Part shown: piece by piece, positions 7,833 through 31,555 of the stretch
How the letters are laid out: every line of letters begins with the position of its first letter
How positions within the stretch are numbered: the first letter of the stretch is position 1
Source of the DNA: Acetobacteraceae bacterium
Lineage (GTDB): Bacteria > Pseudomonadota > Alphaproteobacteria > Acetobacterales > Acetobacteraceae
DNA length: 64,000 nucleotides
Assembly: GCA_965198565.1 (NCBI GenBank)
Contig: OZ240665.1
Location: forward strand, 4,215,514 to 4,279,513
Direction: 5' to 3'
Notes under the pieces: model-generated
Told to the model about the DNA's origin: nothing
The model's input: only the letters and a program-made list of their open reading frames with translations
Database searches by the model: none
Made by a program: the position numbers and the translations under genes

Positions 7833-8278
7833 CGCAGCCGGTGCGTCCAGCCGGAGAGGGTGGCGATGCGGGCGTCGCCGTCGGGGGCGAGTTCGATGGA
7901 GAGGGCGTCGTCGGGGCGCAGCACGTCGAGCCGGGTGGCCCATTCGACGACGACGACGCCTTGGCGGGCCTCGTCCCAGCCCAGTTCGATGACGCCGCCG
8001 GGACCGTCGAGGCGCCAGAGATCGAAGTGGTAGAGCGGGCCGGCGGCGGTGCCGTATTCCTGCACCAGGGTGTAGGACGGGCTGGGGACCTCGAGCGCCG
8101 GGTCGTCGGCGGCGGCGCGGATGAGGGCGCGGGCGAGGACGGATTTGCCGGCGCCGAGCGGGCCGTCGAGCAGGATGGCGTCGCCGGGCCGGAGCGCGGC
8201 GGCGATGCGGGCGCCGAGCGCCTCGGCGGCTTCGGGTGTGGCGAGCCGGAGGCGGAGGGGCGATGCGGTCTCGAGCAT
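7829..8278 (-). CDS. tsaE: tRNA threonylcarbamoyladenosine biosynthesis ATPase TsaE
   Basis: LDGPLGAGKS, VPSPSYTLVQEY, HFDLWRL, VVEW. Confidence 0.95.
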   Translation of the reverse strand: MLETASPLRLRLATPEAAEALGARIAAALRPGDAILLDGPLGAGKSVLARALIRAAADDPALEVPSPSYTLVQEYGTAAGPLYHFDLWRLDGPGGVIELGWDEARQGVVVVEWATRLDVLRPDDALSIELAPDGDARIATLSGWTHRLR

Positions 8279-14195: not shown

Positions 14196-15437
14196 ATGCT
14201 GGGGGCAATGAGGCGGTGGGGTGGTCTGACGCTGTTGCTGCTCAGTGTCGTGCCTCTCCTGCTCAGTGTCGTGCCTCCGGCGCAAGCTGGCGGGCGGACG
14301 CTTCATGACGCGATTGCCGAAGCCTGGTCGAGGGAACCTGGACGCGCCAATTTCCAGGCCCGTCAAGCCACGGCAGCCGCCAACAATCGGGCTGGCGCCG
14401 CCCTCGTGCCGAACGCGCCGACGGCAACAGGCAGCTACGTCAACGACAGGATTGCCGGCAGCAATTACAACTACATAACGTCACAGGTGGAAGTCAGCAC
14501 GCCGGTGTGGTTGCCTGGCGAGGGGACAGCAACCCAGCATGCGGCGCAGGCTGACGCCGCGGCGGCGTCGGCCAGTGCCGAGGCGGCGCATCTCGACGTG
14601 GCGAAACAGGTCATCAGCCTGGTCGCGAATGCCAGGTTGGCGGCGGACGCGCGGGACGTGGCGGCCCGTCAGGTGATGATCGATCAAACCCTCGGCCGGG
14701 ACCTGCAACGCCAAGTGTCCGTCGGGGAAACCGCGCAAAGCGACCTGCTCGCTGCAGATGCCGAGACGGCGAGTGCGACCATTCGACTGAACGACGCGCA
14801 AGCGCAGCTCGAGGCAGCGCTGATCCAACTTGCGGCCGTGACCGGCTCCCGCGAGCTGCCGTCGCTCAGCGTGGCCGCTTTGCCGGCGAACACCGAAGCG
14901 GACGCGATCGCCAGCAACCCACTGCTTGCGGCAGCGGAGCAGGCGGTGACGGCGGCGCGAGCGCGAGCGCGGTTGGTTGACATACAGGATCGAGACGACC
15001 CCGAGATCGGCCTCGAAGGCATCAACGAAAAACAGCCGGGCACACGATGGGACACGCGTTTCGGCGTCACGTTCACGTTCCATTTCGCGACGGAGGCTCG
15101 CAACGCACCGCGCCGGGCCGCAGCGGAACAGGCCGTCACCGCGGCGACCGTGCAGGCGGCTTTGCTCCGCCGGGAGCTGATCGCGGCGCTCCAACTCGCG
15201 GCGGCAACCAAGGACAATGCAGCGCGGACCGTTCAGGCTGCTGAGCGTGGGGCAGTCGCGCTCGACCGCCGCCGGGTGCAGGTCGAGCAGGCCTGGCGCC
15301 TGGGCGAGATGCCGTTCATCGAGTTCCTGCGCGCCAACGTGCAGGCGCTCGATGCCGATCTGACACGCAGGAGAGCTCGGACCAGCCTGCAGCTTGCGCA
15401 GGTGCAGCTCGCCATCGCTGCCGGAGTGATCCCATGA
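14196..15437 (+). CDS. TolC/CzcC-family outer membrane efflux protein
   Basis: Signal peptide, helical Ala-rich body, first gene of a CBA-ordered RND operon; start may be 14208. Confidence 0.8.
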   Translation: MLGAMRRWGGLTLLLLSVVPLLLSVVPPAQAGGRTLHDAIAEAWSREPGRANFQARQATAAANNRAGAALVPNAPTATGSYVNDRIAGSNYNYITSQVEVSTPVWLPGEGTATQHAAQADAAAASASAEAAHLDVAKQVISLVANARLAADARDVAARQVMIDQTLGRDLQRQVSVGETAQSDLLAADAETASATIRLNDAQAQLEAALIQLAAVTGSRELPSLSVAALPANTEADAIASNPLLAAAEQAVTAARARARLVDIQDRDDPEIGLEGINEKQPGTRWDTRFGVTFTFHFATEARNAPRRAAAEQAVTAATVQAALLRRELIAALQLAAATKDNAARTVQAAERGAVALDRRRVQVEQAWRLGEMPFIEFLRANVQALDADLTRRRARTSLQLAQVQLAIAAGVIP

Positions 15438-25981: not shown

Positions 25982-28042
25982 TTGGACGACCCACTCGCTC
26001 CGTTGCTTGCTCCGGTGTCCGACTTGAACGGCGTGGGCCCGGCCACTGCGGAGAAGCTCGCCCGGCTGACCGGGGGCCAGCGCGTGCGAGATTTGCTGTT
26101 CCACCTGCCGGACCGCTTCATCGATCGCCGCTCGCGCGCCAGCATCAAGGACAGTGTTGCGGGCCAGGTCACGACCTGGGACGTCGAGCTGGCCGGGCAC
26201 GAGCCGGCGGAAAAGCCCAACCATCCCTGGCGTATCCGCGTCACCGACGGCACCGCATTCGCCGAGCTGGCGATTTGGGACAAGCAGCGGCTCGGCAGCG
26301 TCATCAGGGCACAGGCTCGCACCGCCTGGGTGGTGAGCGGGCGGGTGGAGGCATTCGGCAGCCGCCTCTCCATGCGGGACCCGGCGTATGTGGTGGAGCG
26401 GGGGAACGCCGGGTCGATTCCGGCGATCGATCCGGTCTGGCCGATGACGGCGCGCCTGTCCGCCCGCGAGCTGCGCGCCGCCATGGCGGCCGCCGCCGCG
26501 CGGGTGCCGGCGCTGCCCGAGTGGCATGACGCGGCCATGCTGCGTCGCTACGGGTGGCCGAGTTTCCGGGCGGCGTTGCTGGGGCTGCAGAGCCCGGCCG
26601 AGCCGCCTTCGCCCGCACTCCGCGGCCGGCTCGAATACGACGAGCTGCTGGCGCACCAGCTCAAGATCGGCTGGATGCGGCGGCGCGAGCGCAACCGCCC
26701 GGGCCGCGCTTTGGAAGGCGGCGGCGCCTTGCGGGCGGAGGCGCTGCTGCGGTTCGGCCTCCCCCTCACCGCGAGCCAAGACCGCGCCCTGGCAGAGATC
26801 AGCGCCGACCTCGCCGCGCCCCGGCGCATGATCCGGCTGCTGCAGGGCGACGTGGGCAGCGGCAAGACGCTGGTCGCGGTGTTGGCCATGTTGACGGCGG
26901 TGGAGGCGGGCGCCCAGGCGGCGCTGATGGCGCCGACCGAGGTGCTGGCAAAGCAGCATTTGCGCACGCTCGAGCGGCTCGCCCCCTGCCCTGTCGGGCT
27001 GCTCACCGGGTCGATCACGGGGGCGGCGCGGCGCAACCTCTTGCTCGCCCTTGGCAACGGCCGGCTGCCCATCGTCGTCGGCACCCACGCGCTGTTCCAG
27101 GAGCCGGTCGCATTCCGCGATCTCGGCCTGGCGGTGATCGATGAGCAGCATCGCTTCGGCGTGGAGCAGCGGCTGATGCTCGGCGACAAAGGCGACCGGA
27201 CGGACTTGCTGGTCATGACCGCCACCCCGATCCCGCGCACGCTGCTGCTGACCCATTGGGGCGAGATGGACGTGAGCCGCCTGGTGGAGAAGCCGGGCGG
27301 GCGCCGGGCGATCCGCACCAGCCTGCATTCCTTGGGCGCCTTCGAAGGCGTGGTGGAAGGGATCGGGCGGGCGCTGGAGCGGGGCGAGCAGGTCTATTGG
27401 GTGTGTCCGTTGGTGGCGGACAGCATGGCGTTGGACCTGGCTGCCGCGGAGGCGCGCTTTGCCGACCTGCGCGCGCGCTTCGGCCCCCAGGTCGTCCTGG
27501 CGCACGGCCAGCAGGACACGGGGGCGCGGGACGCGGCTTTGGCGAGTTTTTCTGCCGGGCAGTCTCGCCTGCTGGTCGCGACGACCATCATCGAGGTCGG
27601 CGTCGATGTGCCCGGCGCGAGCGTGATGGTGATCGAACATGCCGAGCGCTTCGGGCTGGCCCAGTTGCACCAATTGCGCGGCCGTGTCGGGCGCGGGGCG
27701 GCGCAGAGCTACTGCCTGTTGCTGCACGAGGACGGATTGAGCGAGACCGCGCGGCAACGATTGCTGCTGCTGCGGGATACCGAGGATGGGTTTGTGATCG
27801 CAGACGAAGACTTTCGCTTGCGCGGCGCGGGCGACTTGCTCGGCAAGCGGCAGTCTGGGGCGCCCAAGTTCAGGCTGTCGAATTTCGAGGCGCAGGATGG
27901 CATGCTGCGGGTCGCGAGCCAGGATGCGGCCGTGCTGCTGGAGCGGGACCCGGAACTCACCGGCGAGCGAGGACAGGCCGCGCGGCTGCTGATGCGGTTG
28001 TTCGACCGCGACGCCACGTTGGGGACGCTTGCGGTGGGCTAG
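25982..28042 (+). CDS. recG: ATP-dependent DNA helicase RecG
   Basis: LLQGDVGSGKT, MAPTEVLAKQH, VIDEQHRFGV, MTATPIPRTL, QLHQLRGRVGRG, DFRLRGAGD. Confidence 0.97.
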   Translation: MDDPLAPLLAPVSDLNGVGPATAEKLARLTGGQRVRDLLFHLPDRFIDRRSRASIKDSVAGQVTTWDVELAGHEPAEKPNHPWRIRVTDGTAFAELAIWDKQRLGSVIRAQARTAWVVSGRVEAFGSRLSMRDPAYVVERGNAGSIPAIDPVWPMTARLSARELRAAMAAAAARVPALPEWHDAAMLRRYGWPSFRAALLGLQSPAEPPSPALRGRLEYDELLAHQLKIGWMRRRERNRPGRALEGGGALRAEALLRFGLPLTASQDRALAEISADLAAPRRMIRLLQGDVGSGKTLVAVLAMLTAVEAGAQAALMAPTEVLAKQHLRTLERLAPCPVGLLTGSITGAARRNLLLALGNGRLPIVVGTHALFQEPVAFRDLGLAVIDEQHRFGVEQRLMLGDKGDRTDLLVMTATPIPRTLLLTHWGEMDVSRLVEKPGGRRAIRTSLHSLGAFEGVVEGIGRALERGEQVYWVCPLVADSMALDLAAAEARFADLRARFGPQVVLAHGQQDTGARDAALASFSAGQSRLLVATTIIEVGVDVPGASVMVIEHAERFGLAQLHQLRGRVGRGAAQSYCLLLHEDGLSETARQRLLLLRDTEDGFVIADEDFRLRGAGDLLGKRQSGAPKFRLSNFEAQDGMLRVASQDAAVLLERDPELTGERGQAARLLMRLFDRDATLGTLAVG

Positions 28043-28101
28043 GGCCGGGGTGGAACACGTCCATGGCCGAGCCGGTGCAGTGTGAGGCAGAAGGGGGGCG
28101 C

Positions 28102-28210
28102 TGACCGTATTTGGGCCGTTAGCGGACCGTCGGCTATGGAATGGGGAGATTGCGTCTATCAGACTTTCGCTGCCGGCTCTCTACCGGCCTATAAAAGCCA
28201 AAGCGGAAAT
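28102..28210. repeat. left flanking GACCG/GTCGGC..AGCGGA palindromic units of the orphan cassette
   Basis: tgaccgtatttgggccgttagcggac followed by cgtcggcta...aaagcggaaat. Confidence 0.45.
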
Positions 28211-28350
28211 TGAGAAGCCCTCACTGCAGATCCCCATTATGGAATTGCAGCCCTGCACCCTTCCATAACGTCCATTCTCAAGACCTGGCGGGGCTCAATA
28301 CAGGACCGCCGCGCAGGAGATTCGAGTGCCTAATCGGGTGTTATGGCAAG

Positions 28351-28761
28351 TCATCTTTGGGCATCAGGTGGCAACGGGGTAATGCGGAAAGCACCACCTT
28401 GAACTGCTGGCAGAACTACTCCGAAAACAGTCCCGAGAGGAAGCTTATACCATGCATGTCCGTCCCAGCAGTCGCCTGTAATTTTAGTAACCACGACACA
28501 ATCAACCGGACCATTGGCGCGAGCATAGTGGCGGGGACCGAGAGGATATATATTTTGCCACGCCTTGCCGTCCCAGCACCGGTTATCTTTGTCAAATCCG
28601 AAACAGACAATGTTAGTTCCGGCAGGCTGAAAACCGCCACCGCGCATTGCAGGTAAATTCACGCCATAGATGCCAACTTCTTCGGCCTTAGCGCCTTCTA
28701 ACGGTACGACAGCCACGATAATGGCGAAAGCTAGAATGAGACCGCGAGTTCTGTTGATCAT
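28351..28761 (-). CDS. secreted hypothetical protein with a duplicated CWDGxAW motif
   Basis: Signal peptide (AxA-E cleavage), two C-x7/8-CWDG-x-AW..PLG repeats, lower GC, 5 nt after the upstream ORF stop. Confidence 0.75.
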   Translation of the reverse strand: MINRTRGLILAFAIIVAVVPLEGAKAEEVGIYGVNLPAMRGGGFQPAGTNIVCFGFDKDNRCWDGKAWQNIYPLGPRHYARANGPVDCVVVTKITGDCWDGHAWYKLPLGTVFGVVLPAVQGGAFRITPLPPDAQR

Positions 28762-28766
28762 TTGAG

Positions 28767-29033
28767 TTACGTATTGCCAAGAGTTTTTCCACTCTTTGCG
28801 CGTTCTACGATTTCTTCAATTTGGGCAGGGGATTGGCCGTATTCATCAGCTAGGACCAGCCGGAACTTGCTTTCGGTCAGACCCTTGCCGTCATCCGGCT
28901 CACTGCCATCAGCAAGATTGAGCCCGTGAATGGATCGCCCTGTTTCCCTCGTCTTGTCCGACAAAGCCAAGGTCATAAAGCGCCATTCGCCTTCGGTGTC
29001 TTTCCAGCCTTTGTAACCTACCTGGCTCATCAT
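28767..29033 (-). CDS. small hypothetical protein (88 aa)
   Basis: Strong AGGAGG RBS directly before ATG, balanced composition, lower GC. Confidence 0.7.
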   Translation of the reverse strand: MMSQVGYKGWKDTEGEWRFMTLALSDKTRETGRSIHGLNLADGSEPDDGKGLTESKFRLVLADEYGQSPAQIEEIVERAKSGKTLGNT

Positions 29034-29343
29034 TCCTCCTTCTCGGGCCTATGCCGGATGATCCTAACCCACTTTTTGCAACCCGGATTGCAACCTCGTC
29101 TGCTGACGCATTTTCGGGTGTGAAGGCGCAAAGCAGGACGATACAGGTAGCACCGCTAACCGTGCGTACCGTGTGAGGAAGTCTCCTCGGCATCGTCTAG
29201 CTCTCCGTAAACCCAGGTATTCAGCAACCCATGAGTGGCACCATCCGATCATGCCCGCAATCAAGCAGTCCCGAAAGTCGACTTTTGGCGGAGCCCGCAC
29301 GGCATGCCGCATCAAAGTCTTACGTGTTCCGAAAGATATGACC

Positions 29344-29452
29344 GTGTCCGCTTTCCAATCATTCCCGGCCACCCCGATCTCTAGCGGTCATGTCCGCTTC
29401 CGGGCATTCACGTGGTGAGGGTGAGCGGCCGACATTGGCACGAAGCGGCCAT
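29344..29452. repeat. right flanking tandem GTCCGCTT..AGCGGNCAT palindromic units
   Basis: gtgtccgctt..tagcggtcat (29344-29391) abutting atgtccgctt..aagcggccat (29390-29452). Confidence 0.55.
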
Positions 29453-29457
29453 CCAGC

Positions 29458-30198
29458 CTAAGATCCAGAAAACCAGTCATACCCCTGCTTCTCCCAATAC
29501 CCGCCGGGATACGTGTTCGTCACCTCGATCGCCTGCACGTTCTTCGCACTCTTGAAGCCAAGCTTAATCGGAATGCGCAGTCGAACCGGAGCGCCCCACT
29601 CCGCGGTCAACGGCTTACCCAGGAAGTCCAGCGCGAGAATGGTCTGCGGGTGGAGCGCACTCGCCATGTCAATGCTCGTCGAGTAACCGTCGAAGCAGCG
29701 GAACGCGACGTAGCGGCAGCGTAAATCCGCCCCGACCCGGCGCAAGAAATCCCCAAGCGGAACACCGCCCCACTGGCCGACCTGGCTCCAACCCTCGATG
29801 CAGATATGCCGGGTGATCTGGCTCGATTGGGGCAGCGCGCGGAGCTTCTCCACCATCCAAGGTGTCCGGTCAGCGACTTGGCCGGCAACCTCGAGCTGCC
29901 ATCCCGCAGGGACCGGGCGCACTTGCCAGTCCTCGTAGAAGGCGTTGAACCGGAACGGGTGAGTGATGGCGGACGCTGGATAGGTCTCCGCCAGGCGGTT
30001 CGGGTTGAACAAGGCGGCCTGAATCCGGTCGTTCAGCCGCAGCATGGCCCACAGCGCCGCGTTGATGCCCGTGTGAGTCCCCAGGTCGCAGCCGGTCAGC
30101 AATGTCAACGAGCCAAGCGACAGCCCGTGACGGATCAGCCCGCGCCGTTGCAAGCGGCGCAGCTCGGCCCGCAGCCCCGCCGGGTCAATCACCGTCAT
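29458..30198 (-). CDS. molybdopterin-dependent oxidoreductase, MsrP/YedY-like
   Basis: Tat-like RRGL..LTGC, TRHICIEGWS, HPQTILA, GAPVRLRIPIKLGFKSAK, GGYWE..GYDWF; RBS GAGGAGG. Confidence 0.9.
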   Translation of the reverse strand: MTVIDPAGLRAELRRLQRRGLIRHGLSLGSLTLLTGCDLGTHTGINAALWAMLRLNDRIQAALFNPNRLAETYPASAITHPFRFNAFYEDWQVRPVPAGWQLEVAGQVADRTPWMVEKLRALPQSSQITRHICIEGWSQVGQWGGVPLGDFLRRVGADLRCRYVAFRCFDGYSTSIDMASALHPQTILALDFLGKPLTAEWGAPVRLRIPIKLGFKSAKNVQAIEVTNTYPGGYWEKQGYDWFSGS

Positions 30199-30808
30199 GG
30201 TAAGCCTCCTCGGTCCGGACGCCGACCACCATCGAGACCAGCGTGCGGGGAAACAGCAACACGAGCGCAAGATGGATCACGACGAAGGCGGCAATCGCAC
30301 ACATCAAGCCGAGATGGATCAGCCGAGCGGTCGGATAACCGCCGAACAATCCGGTCAGCCAGCCCAATTGCACTGGCTTCCAGATCGAGAACCCGGTGAC
30401 GACCGCGCCACCGATCGCGGCGATCACCAGCACATACAACAGTCGCTGCACAGCATTGTACACGCCGACTTGGTGCGCCAGCCGGAACCGTATGGCCAGC
30501 AGCAGATCACGCCAGACGTCGGCAAGCCGGGGGCGACCCAGCGCGCGGCGCAGATGTCCGCTGGCGAGCCCGTAGATCAGGTAGGCCGAGCCATCGACGA
30601 GCAGGATCCACATCGCCGATAGATGCCAGGCGATCCCGCCGGCGAGCCAACCCCCCAACGTCATCCATTGCGGCACCGTGAACGGCAGGCTGGGCGAGGC
30701 GTCGTAGATCTCCCAACCGCTCAGCATCATGCAGAGCACGGCATATGCGCCGATCCAATGCATCACTCGCACCGGCCATGGATGCGCCGGCCGGATTGTA
30801 TCTCGCAA
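30185..30808 (-). CDS. cytochrome b/b6-domain membrane partner of the Mo-oxidoreductase
   Basis: HPWPVRVMHW, SGWEIYDASP, LGGWLAGGIAWHLSAMW, YNAVQR..Y, WKPVQ, AR.IH; TTG start inferred. Confidence 0.88.
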   Translation of the reverse strand: MRDTIRPAHPWPVRVMHWIGAYAVLCMMLSGWEIYDASPSLPFTVPQWMTLGGWLAGGIAWHLSAMWILLVDGSAYLIYGLASGHLRRALGRPRLADVWRDLLLAIRFRLAHQVGVYNAVQRLLYVLVIAAIGGAVVTGFSIWKPVQLGWLTGLFGGYPTARLIHLGLMCAIAAFVVIHLALVLLFPRTLVSMVVGVRTEEAYHDGD

Positions 30809-30874
30809 TCTTCGTATCCCCTTTGCCGTCTGGCGCGTATGTAGCTTACACAGTTTGACCAGCAAGGATCGATC

Positions 30875-31555
30875 ATGATGCTCCGCCGCCTCGGATTTAC
30901 CGCCGCCCTCGCGTCACTTCCATTGCTTGCACACGCCGCAGCATCCGCGCCGCATGTGCGCGGCACCGTCTCCAGCATCAACGGCGACAGCGTCATGGTG
31001 CACACGGTCGACGGAACCGACGTCACCGTGCATCTAACGCCGACCACGAAGTTCGCCGAAGTGAGCAAGTCCAGCTTGGACGCGATCGGCCCCAACACGT
31101 ATATCGGGACCGCAGCCAAGGACACTGGGTCGGGCCGGCTGATCGCACTCGAGGTCGTGGTGTTCCCGGAAGCGATGCGGGGCACGGGCGACGGGCATTA
31201 CGATTGGGATGCGCTGCCCGACAGCACCCTGTCCGGCGGCAGCGCCGTTTCCAGCACCATGACGAACGGGACGGTGACGAAGGCGTCCGCCAGCGCCGGC
31301 AAGGTCGACAGCACGATGACGAACGGCAATGTCGCAGCCAGCACTGCGGCGGGCGGCGCCAAGCAACTGACGGTGACCTACAAGGGTGGGCAGCAGCAAA
31401 TCCTGGTGCCGCCGACCGCGCCGATCGTGATGATCGCGCCCGGTTCACGCGCCGACCTCACGCAGGGCGCCCACGTGGTGGTGACGGAGGCGAAGGATAG
31501 CGACAATGCCGCCTCGTTCGCGATCGGCATGAACGGCATCATGCCGCCGATGTAG
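30875..31555 (+). CDS. periplasmic protein, DUF5666-like OB-fold repeats
   Basis: Signal peptide, HVRGTV, ALEVVVFPEAMRGTGDGHYDWD, STMTNG repeated; divergent from the MsrPQ-like pair. Confidence 0.8.
   Translation: MMLRRLGFTAALASLPLLAHAAASAPHVRGTVSSINGDSVMVHTVDGTDVTVHLTPTTKFAEVSKSSLDAIGPNTYIGTAAKDTGSGRLIALEVVVFPEAMRGTGDGHYDWDALPDSTLSGGSAVSSTMTNGTVTKASASAGKVDSTMTNGNVAASTAAGGAKQLTVTYKGGQQQILVPPTAPIVMIAPGSRADLTQGAHVVVTEAKDSDNAASFAIGMNGIMPPM

Follow-up and report, generated by a model that had tools for sequence, protein, structure and literature searches.

The window analysed here is a stretch of 64,000 nucleotides (positions 4,215,514–4,279,513) of the genome of an Acetobacteraceae bacterium, referred to as G000, which consists of a single contig of 4.67 Mb with a GC content of 67.8%. 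Within it, a recG helicase gene (25982–28042, plus strand; Pfam domains DEAD, Helicase_C, RecG_dom3_C and RecG_wedge) and a gene for an MsrP-like molybdopterin oxidoreductase (29458–30270, minus strand; PF00174, E 9e-29) converge on a low-GC stretch of 1.4 kb (28043–29457). The 3′ end of recG forms one border of this islet, and at the other, after the 3′ end of the host msrP-like gene, lies a copy of a repeat of about 75 nt, here termed R, which is the main subject of this analysis. Two small open reading frames (ORFs), ORF1 and ORF2, were found between these borders. The GC content of the stretch falls to 0.50–0.57 compared to 0.68 for the genome, in keeping with a preliminary description of the sequence which had noted the stretch as richer in AT. 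ORF1 and ORF2 are marked as foreign since their GC content at third codon positions (GC3; 0.45 and 0.55, respectively) is far below the 0.80–0.89 of the adjoining host genes. A domain search of the ORFs of the stretch detected neither an integrase nor a transposase, as the preliminary description had also stated. For comparison, 24 genomes of the same genus (G codes) and a number of metagenome contigs and extracted loci (L codes) were used.

The R element next to the msrP-like gene (29384–29458, minus strand) begins directly after the stop codon of that gene and consists of a 28-nt dyad, ATGGCCGCTTC-GTGCCA-ATGTCGGCCGC, followed by a variable stretch and a 3′ arm, GGAAGCGGACAT. It scored 64.7–64.8 bits (E 1e-12 to 2e-15) with two covariance models, R1, built from eight sequences, and R2, built from 40 sequences (alignments A2, A4, in both of which it is a seed). 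Abutting it is a short or partial R unit (29338–29392, minus strand; GACCGCTAGAG..GGAAAGCGGACAC, 7.3 bits), and the junction of this tandem, AGCGGAC-N1-2-G.CCGCT, is the same as that seen at other islet ends. At the recG side, a terminal R-type dyad read from the sequence (28100–28127, minus strand; GTCCGCTAACGGCCCAAATACGGTCAGC) closes the islet, with the region 28100–28135 scoring 7.3 bits on its own with R2, and a degenerate R unit (28121–28216, minus strand; TTCCGCTTTGG..CATAGCCGAC) gave a full-length alignment to R2 of 6.2 bits (E 0.36 in 1.6 kb) and resembles a weak R downstream of recG in G010. These weak left units can be interpreted only by way of other islets, namely those at 3.504 Mb in G000, at locus 1 of G010 and on G015:C61 and G015:C141, which are closed by the same GTCCGCTAAC..CGG.CA terminal unit placed after ..AGC.GAC and one nucleotide. 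All four inverted-repeat units quoted in the preliminary description, two at each end, were found in place. It had treated them as one motif; the right-hand unit is a member of a repeat family (64.8 bits), and the left units are degenerate (6.2–7.3 bits).

The starting point for the models was the observation that exact-pattern matches in relatives shared internal sequence as well as arms. Approximately ten copies of R were found in G000 (E ≤ 1e-3) and approximately 35 in the 24 genomes of the same genus (E < 0.01), with 0–12 copies per genome, and a pattern scan located R mainly in metagenome-assembled genomes of Acetobacteraceae and in Lichenicola. The consensus is ..ATGG/TCCGCTT-T/CGCGCCCATCTCGGACATTCAG-(about 20 variable)-CCCGAAAGCGGACAT, with a second subfamily carrying the internal box CGACCCCAAGTCGGTCATAA. 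The first 28–29 nt form a dyad of two inverted arms of about 11 nt (ATG.CCGCTT. and ..TCGG.CAT) around a centre of 6–7 nt. After the variable stretch there is a third arm, AAGCGGACAT, a repeat of the right arm and the pairing partner of the first. In the terminal stem 89.9% of positions are paired, and double changes between CG and UA occur at two of its seven pairs, a count reached by none of 500 shuffles; RNAalifold gave no consensus structure for the alignment. The termini of the 40 aligned copies read G[GT]CCGCTT and AAGCGGAC[AG]T, confirming the earlier remark that the units lack the RYYYAAC/GTTRRRY cores of attC. A literature search found no description of this repeat, and it is apparently undescribed.

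Scanning with a motif or covariance model, as had been proposed, thus recovered a dispersed family, but the motif as originally defined occurs at chance level. Genome-wide enrichment of the bare GTCCGC..GCGGAC pair, which had been anticipated, was not borne out: within 60 nt there were 86 genome matches compared to approximately 100 expected, with flat spacing and no excess of the hairpin order over the control order. The stricter pair ATG.CCGCTT..AAGCGG.CAT was no commoner in G000 than its reversed control, and TGTCCGCTT was at chance level across the genome. BLAST searches with both flanks and the whole islet against the genome and the 24 relatives found no copies, no Rfam family was matched, folds of the islet-end regions were no better than those of shuffles (z −1.2 to +0.8) and terminator and promoter scans gave nothing significant. 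A palindrome with a perfect centre in the upstream region of the cargo (29271–29288, strand not assigned; CCGAAAGTC/GACTTTTGG), detected by inverted-repeat search and previously described as a degenerate ccgaaagtcgac near 29270–29282, is present but is not an R unit, its R2 score not rising above noise; its fold was not significant either (z −1.2). It should also be noted that a short R-like palindrome (GGCCGCTTTGC-11 nt-GAAGCGGAC; 23.6–25 bits, E about 0.002) lies far from the islet at 14865–14911 of the window (plus strand) and may be a minimal member of the R family. A coding repeat made up of about 14 tandem units of 21 nt (GATGCCCGCTTCGGGCAGATC with variants), located within an ORF at G000:C1:3466596–3466880, produced a false cluster of TGTCCGCTT.

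Copies of R, when oriented by their own strand, show a clear polarity. The GC content of the 1 kb on the 5′ side was 0.65–0.68 and that of the 1 kb on the 3′ side averaged 0.57–0.59, with 1896 control gene ends of G000 averaging 0.685 downstream; values below 0.58 were found for 40% of R copies versus 1.2% of the control gene ends (Mann-Whitney p 1e-18). A host-like gene end on the same strand as R was present within 150 nt on the 5′ side of 20 of 35 copies and on the 3′ side of two, R being located 0–120 nt past stop codons. Four of the ten copies in G000 head sharply bounded islets of 1–2.75 kb, at the far ends of which the junction is that of the window's left end (..AGC.GAC, one base, GTCCGCTAAC..CGG.CA). 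A second R-like match was detected 0.9–2 kb away on the 3′ side at nine of 24 loci and on the 5′ side at one, and this second unit, weaker than R in most cases, usually closes the islets. In the recG islet of G015, R is present at both ends in direct order. Pairs of R on the same strand, 1–3.4 kb apart, occur on several contigs, with no array of more than two units being found and with mixed orientations. The cargo bounded by R was found to include BrnT/BrnA, a resolvase with an ABC-three-component (ABC-3C) system, an 813-aa AAA/STAND-like NTPase and proteins without assigned function. It had been proposed to test whether model matches flank short orphan genes; the copies delimit low-GC islets of accessory genes at many loci, with toxin–antitoxin and defence genes among the cargo. 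Two loci from different species bins, L058 (G018:C180) and L060 (G017:C90), matched at 100% identity across the compared 2 kb of sequence on the downstream side of R, and their R copies and upstream ORF also appear the same; this identity represents either very recent transfer or contamination between bins.

Orthologous loci in the sister species G010 and G015 showed that the cargo next to R differs. Three R loci carry different cargo in the two species between flanks that are 90–96% identical, and at two of the three the breaks lie inside R units. At locus 1, with flanks of 95–96% identity, the cargo of 1.49 kb in G010 is unrelated to the 0.57 kb in G015. Identity is lost at position 25 of R, which is the dyad centre, and is regained within the second unit; at the left end the outer arm tracks the flank and the rest tracks the cargo, with the reverse at the right end, as expected for attL/attR hybrids. 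This locus was found to be empty in G014 and G012. At the locus between recG and a major facilitator superfamily (MFS) gene, a 1.2-kb BrnT/BrnA islet in G010 corresponds to a 3.6-kb resolvase and ABC-3C islet in G015, with R at the distal edge in both species and a further short direct R at the recG edge in G015. Locus 3 holds different cargo of 1.9 kb (G010) and 1.1 kb (G015). The R copies at an orthologous locus diverge far more than its flanks. Taken together, the swapped cargo and the empty sites suggest recombination at R.

Some further features of these loci may be recorded. The recG-side islet of G015 (L047:5523-8247, G015:C50) encodes an ABC-three-component-type system comprising an HNH/CTD10 protein, a 75-aa ORF and a 582-aa DUF2326 protein, and it adjoins a 191-aa serine resolvase with its own TGTCCC-N16-GGGACA site. 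A separate, high-copy, GC-rich repeat resembling the repetitive extragenic palindromic (REP) type, ggggccaagggcggggcgctgccccggaccccgccaaaggacggggtcctctggacacc, is located directly after the recG stop codon in both G010 and G015 (L046, G010:C28, about 8090–8190; L047, G015:C50) and beside other R junctions; G015 contains over 40 additional copies.

A candidate enzyme was found adjacent to R in relatives, as had been looked for in the form of a recombinase co-occurring with the units. On G012:C190, a gene for a 213-aa tyrosine recombinase (int) begins 87 nt past R, and after it come vapBC, a second direct R and the next gene. On G017:C128 an int fragment lies 88 nt after R, int remnants directly follow R in G004 and G006, and int abuts R on G018:C10. 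Several genomes and metagenome contigs have the int start codon 85–90 nt after R. The five metagenome contigs that were scored (among L113–L120) share one arrangement: an MFS gene stop codon, 36 nt, R (55.9–56.7 bits), 87 nt, int, Phd, PIN, 10 nt and a second unit, R′. The latter scored 12.7 bits, is in direct orientation and has no left arm, with the internal box and 3′ arm being kept. A recombinase gene, an adjacent att-like site and an element bounded by related sites are found together in relatives (G012:C190 and the metagenome contigs), and the window's islet has the R sites and no int. Adjacency of R and int at at least three of approximately 14 recombinase loci is, by our estimate, far beyond chance (approximately 100 R matches in approximately 110 Mb). 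The recombinase belongs to a family of at least 8000 proteins, many of them on short contigs; it matched XerC/XerD models far below their cut-offs and has no long N-terminal arm-binding domain. It is usually encoded inside an element and is not a fixed platform gene as in integrons.

A number of other enzymes were considered for R and rejected. A HUH nuclease, which had been named as a possible partner, and with it a HUH/RAYT (Y1) transposase, does not fit, PF01797 being absent from G000 and from 22 of the 24 relatives. An integron integrase was dismissed on a best match to TIGR02249 of 82.5 bits against a cut-off of 265. As for a serine resolvase, the one adjoining R in G015 has the site of its own described above, and the resolvases of G000 lack an upstream dyad. 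Elements of the Tn5053/Tn7-like TniA/TniB type were also discarded as owners of R ends, given that intact elements carry no R. Decayed remnants of TniA/TniB/TniQ type are present in G000 (C1:542846-546000 and 1366643-1368836), one of them broken by an element of the insertion sequence (IS) family IS66, and several short R-like palindromes (16–22 bits) lie beside the second remnant at 1358.8–1365.1 kb.

On these sequence comparisons, the reading that we somewhat favour is that R is an att-type site of the 213-aa tyrosine recombinase and that the islets bounded by R are miniature integrative packets. In this model, the recombinase would bind to R and cross over at the dyad centre, and packets would be gained and lost through site-specific recombination at the R dyad. 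Some packets would be autonomous, with the order R-int-toxin–antitoxin-R′, and those without int, such as that of the window, may have been inserted or exchanged with recombinase supplied in trans from another copy. The stretch between recG and the msrP-like gene is then best explained as a small horizontally acquired packet (ORF2 and ORF1), a member of a packet family that occurs in this genus of Acetobacteraceae. The preliminary description had suggested integron-like capture of cassettes, acting in trans at sites other than attC; the repeat-bounded swappable cargo, the empty sites and the linked recombinase speak for this, but int is truncated in G000 and usually lies inside the element.

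Several observations weigh against this model. The left units of the window reach only 6–7 bits. Only a truncated copy of int is present in G000 (2,283,785–2,284,108), and upstream of it lies what is left of a decayed R; because nothing else remains of the recombinase gene, the ten R sites of G000 and their islets are now probably frozen relics. Most R-bounded islets carry no recombinase, and 11 of the approximately 14 recombinase loci of the genus, like a Plastoroseomonas recombinase locus, have no detected R nearby. The second unit is direct in some islets and inverted in others. At the recG–MFS locus the divergence begins approximately 30 nt outside R, and at locus 3 the whole element may differ between the species because the end boxes themselves diverge (65–74%). 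Compared with the empty sites, the locus 1 insert of G010 and G015 ends in imperfect inverted repeats of 24 nt (19 of 24 positions match between GTGGTGTTGCAAGTTGAAATCCGG and its partner) and is flanked by a direct repeat of about 10 nt, CGGCA[AC]GGG, which is a transposon signature. No R units were found around the homologs of ORF1 elsewhere, the similarity being limited to the coding sequence. Furthermore, the controls for GC content came from G000 only, and the related genomes are not independent samples.

Foremost among the other explanations, and in our judgement an unlikely one, is that R is a REP-like element of gene 3′ ends, acting as a terminator or stabiliser of mRNA, and is itself not involved in mobility. 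Foreign DNA would gather in the insertion-tolerant space at gene ends and cargo would be swapped by homologous recombination in the flanks, in the manner of the Neisseria minimal mobile elements. The position of R just past stop codons and on the strand of the gene fits with this, alphaproteobacterial REPs being mostly downstream of coding regions and without a dedicated transposase (PMC3733652), as do the many islets lacking a recombinase, the conserved core genes on either side of swapped cargo and the separate GC-rich REP at the same junctions. It accounts poorly, however, for the frequency with which R borders DNA below 0.58 GC compared to ordinary gene ends, for breaks lying within R units at both ends of locus 1, for R copies diverging much more than their orthologous flanks and for the fixed distance from R to the recombinase start codon in several genomes; R also has no T-run and folds no better than shuffles. 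Less likely still would be that the islets are non-autonomous or decayed cut-and-paste transposons which target gene 3′ ends, the R units serving as subterminal transposase-binding repeats with TG..CA ends. The reading stays alive as a rival because locus 1 has a two-level structure: it would explain the terminal inverted repeats and the CGGCA[AC]GGG repeat of that insert relative to the empty sites in G014 and G012, and the tandem R units at islet ends; the same end boxes also recur at other G015 loci. Against it, no copy of the terminal box TTGAAATCCGG was found in G000, and the R of the window abuts the msrP stop codon, leaving no room for such a box. The inner cargo of G010 and G015 still differs inside constant terminal boxes, with breaks at the R dyads, and R is linked neither to intact TniA/TniB elements nor to a Y1/HUH transposase nor to any DDE transposase that could be found.

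A further idea, that the 213-aa enzyme is an invertase like FimB/FimE and that R pairs are the inversion sites of a phase-variation switch, is considered very improbable. The recombinase matches invertases of the FimB/FimE type in size, it lacks a long N-terminal arm-binding domain, and the second R-like unit is inverted in several islets, but complete R-int-toxin–antitoxin-R′ elements have direct repeats, and inversion does not explain the presence, absence or replacement of cargo between species. That the units of the window are inverted repeats which arose by chance in intergenic DNA that is ordinary but richer in AT can hardly be maintained. It would agree with a motif count at chance, fold z-scores near 0 and the 6–7 bits of the left units; the right-hand unit, in turn, reaches 64.8 bits and recurs in dozens of relatives with conserved internal boxes, which refutes chance for that unit. 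Chance is possible for the unit at 28121–28216 and is now tenable only for the weak left units.

Turning to the cargo of the window, ORF1 (28351–28761, minus strand) encodes a secreted protein of 136 aa, which has a signal peptide, two CWDGxAW repeats and four cysteines that are invariant. The 88-aa ORF2 (28767–29033, minus strand) lies 5 nt upstream of it and its coding status is uncertain. The preliminary description had regarded both as orphans. This was upheld for ORF2, which matched only itself among 5.8 billion proteins and has no Pfam, PHROG or NCBIfam family, but ORF1 is not an orphan, as 19 homologs were found in metagenomes (44–80% identity; alignment A1) and one in a sister genome (G024). 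Outside G000, the ORF1 family was not found in 185,579 species genomes searched by pattern or in 400 genomes of the class. On the metagenome contigs L019, L020 and L022 the homologs are located in mobile contexts (beside an IS3 transposase and a TraG coupling protein of type IV secretion, within an integrase-bearing island, and near an IS110 transposase), and one further homolog is at a chromosomal site. The only homolog in the same genus (L032, G024:C1:4198600-4199990) lies in a lower-GC islet with two small ORFs without assigned function and without clear R units, flanked by putative malonyl-CoA decarboxylase-like and pqiA-like genes named from sequence. On the model above, ORF1 would be mobile cargo belonging to an uncommon family of secreted proteins.

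A weak match of the ORF1 repeat motif to the Ralstonia fucose lectin RSL was detected (NF052355, 15.4 bits against a cut-off of 100), and profile matches to the PDB (E 0.002–0.2) were almost exclusively to RSL. The structure model of ORF1 was moderately confident (predicted local distance difference test 76.5) and a Foldseek search with it against the PDB returned no fold match (best E 7.4). Given the score below cut-off and the lack of a fold match, the fucose lectin assignment is a lead only. The protein resembles the two-repeat fucose lectins RSL and BambL in being small and secreted and in its tandem C-W-D-G-x-x-W repeat; unlike these, it scores far under the family cut-offs, has a repeat spacing of 36 aa instead of 45, contains four conserved cysteines and has a predicted fold without a counterpart in the PDB.

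The surroundings of the islet are particular to G000. The recG gene is 73–82% identical at the DNA level to that of the 24 relatives, the match stopping at the stop codon, and the adjacency of recG and msrP was found in G000 only; in all of the relatives synteny is lost to either side of recG as well as of the msrP module. As this adjacency is unique, no comparable empty recG–msrP site can exist. The msrP module (29458–31555) comprises the MsrP-like oxidoreductase, a cytochrome b561 (30185–30865) and a 226-aa secreted protein, and was kept as a unit in G011, G018 and G019, where the surroundings are all rearranged. In G011 and G018 a gene resembling those for extracytoplasmic function sigma factors follows msrP at the position where G000 has the islet.

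A wider proposal, which we consider conceivable but doubtful, is that R and the 213-aa recombinase together constitute a second integron-like but decentralised cassette system. Miniature integrative packets of 1–3.5 kb with toxin–antitoxin, defence or single orphan genes would insert at a structured site of approximately 75 nt located just after host genes, and could be exchanged in trans among many chromosomal sites across the Acetobacteraceae, and perhaps far beyond, given the at least 8000 members of the recombinase family. If R is indeed the site of a small tyrosine recombinase that moves packets of one to four genes, this would explain the origin of recombinase-less, low-GC islets of orphan, toxin–antitoxin and defence genes at gene ends, hotspots of a kind which have been described in pangenome studies but rarely explained. 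R2 would then offer a sequence model with which such islets could be found and delimited, and the enzyme and its site would form a very compact pair (213 aa and approximately 28–75 nt).

When compared with known systems, R shares several features with the attC sites of integron cassettes. Both are short (attC 57–141 nt, R approximately 75 nt), have conserved inverted repeats at their termini around a variable centre, and preserve their pairing through compensatory changes. Both are associated with promoter-poor accessory cargo such as toxin–antitoxin and defence genes, and in both a tyrosine recombinase is implicated that many of the mobile units do not encode themselves. Clusters of attC without an integrase are known as CALINs. 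The termini of R are G.CCGCTT and AAGCGGAC, however, instead of RYYYAAC/GTTRRRY, and no IntI, attI platform or long array accompanies it; the recombinase has 213 aa and is encoded within some elements, and R is found at scattered positions behind a wide variety of host genes. Neisseria strains carry, as minimal mobile elements, whole-gene cassettes that vary from strain to strain between conserved genes on either side; short repeats occur at the junctions, and the movement of these elements is attributed to transformation and homology of the flanks. The R islets resemble them, together with the dRS3/NIME repeats, in that cassettes vary between the same flanks and repeats mark the junctions; unlike in Neisseria, the breaks of R islets fall within the repeat itself, which has a recombinase gene linked to it.

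The dRS3 repeats are REPs of the CGTC-1 type (PMC3733652), and the CGTC/TGTC-tagged REPs of alphaproteobacteria have been reported mostly downstream of coding regions and without a dedicated transposase (Di Nocera et al., 2013; PMC3733652). R is similar to these REPs and to bacterial interspersed mosaic elements as a palindromic extragenic repeat downstream of coding regions that is often paired, has a TGTC-type head and lacks a dedicated HUH transposase. Such REPs, in contrast to R, are hairpins of 20–40 nt with loops of 4–5 nt, present in tens to hundreds of copies. The arms of R are 45–55 nt apart around a conserved internal box, there are approximately ten copies per genome, and R is associated both with low-GC cargo and with a tyrosine recombinase.

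A further close likeness is to the Xer-dependent modules, namely the integrative mobile elements exploiting Xer (IMEXs) and the pdif/dif modules of Acinetobacter plasmids (PMC6449649; PMC13141974). Like the R packets, these are small, carry toxin–antitoxin and accessory genes and are bounded by 28-nt sites with an 11-6-11 dyad (11-6/7-11 in R). As with many R packets, they do not encode the recombinase themselves; a tyrosine recombinase moves them in trans, a mode of movement that would apply to R by analogy. They differ from R in that its sequence shows no relation to the dif-type sites of G000 (CATAA..TTATG), that it has an extra third arm, that its enzyme is a dedicated 213-aa recombinase and not XerC/XerD, and that its packets are chromosomal and located at gene 3′ ends. 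As far as sequence can tell, the R system resembles integrons and Xer modules in its logic, yet with sites that are neither attC nor dif and with an enzyme that is neither IntI nor XerC/XerD.

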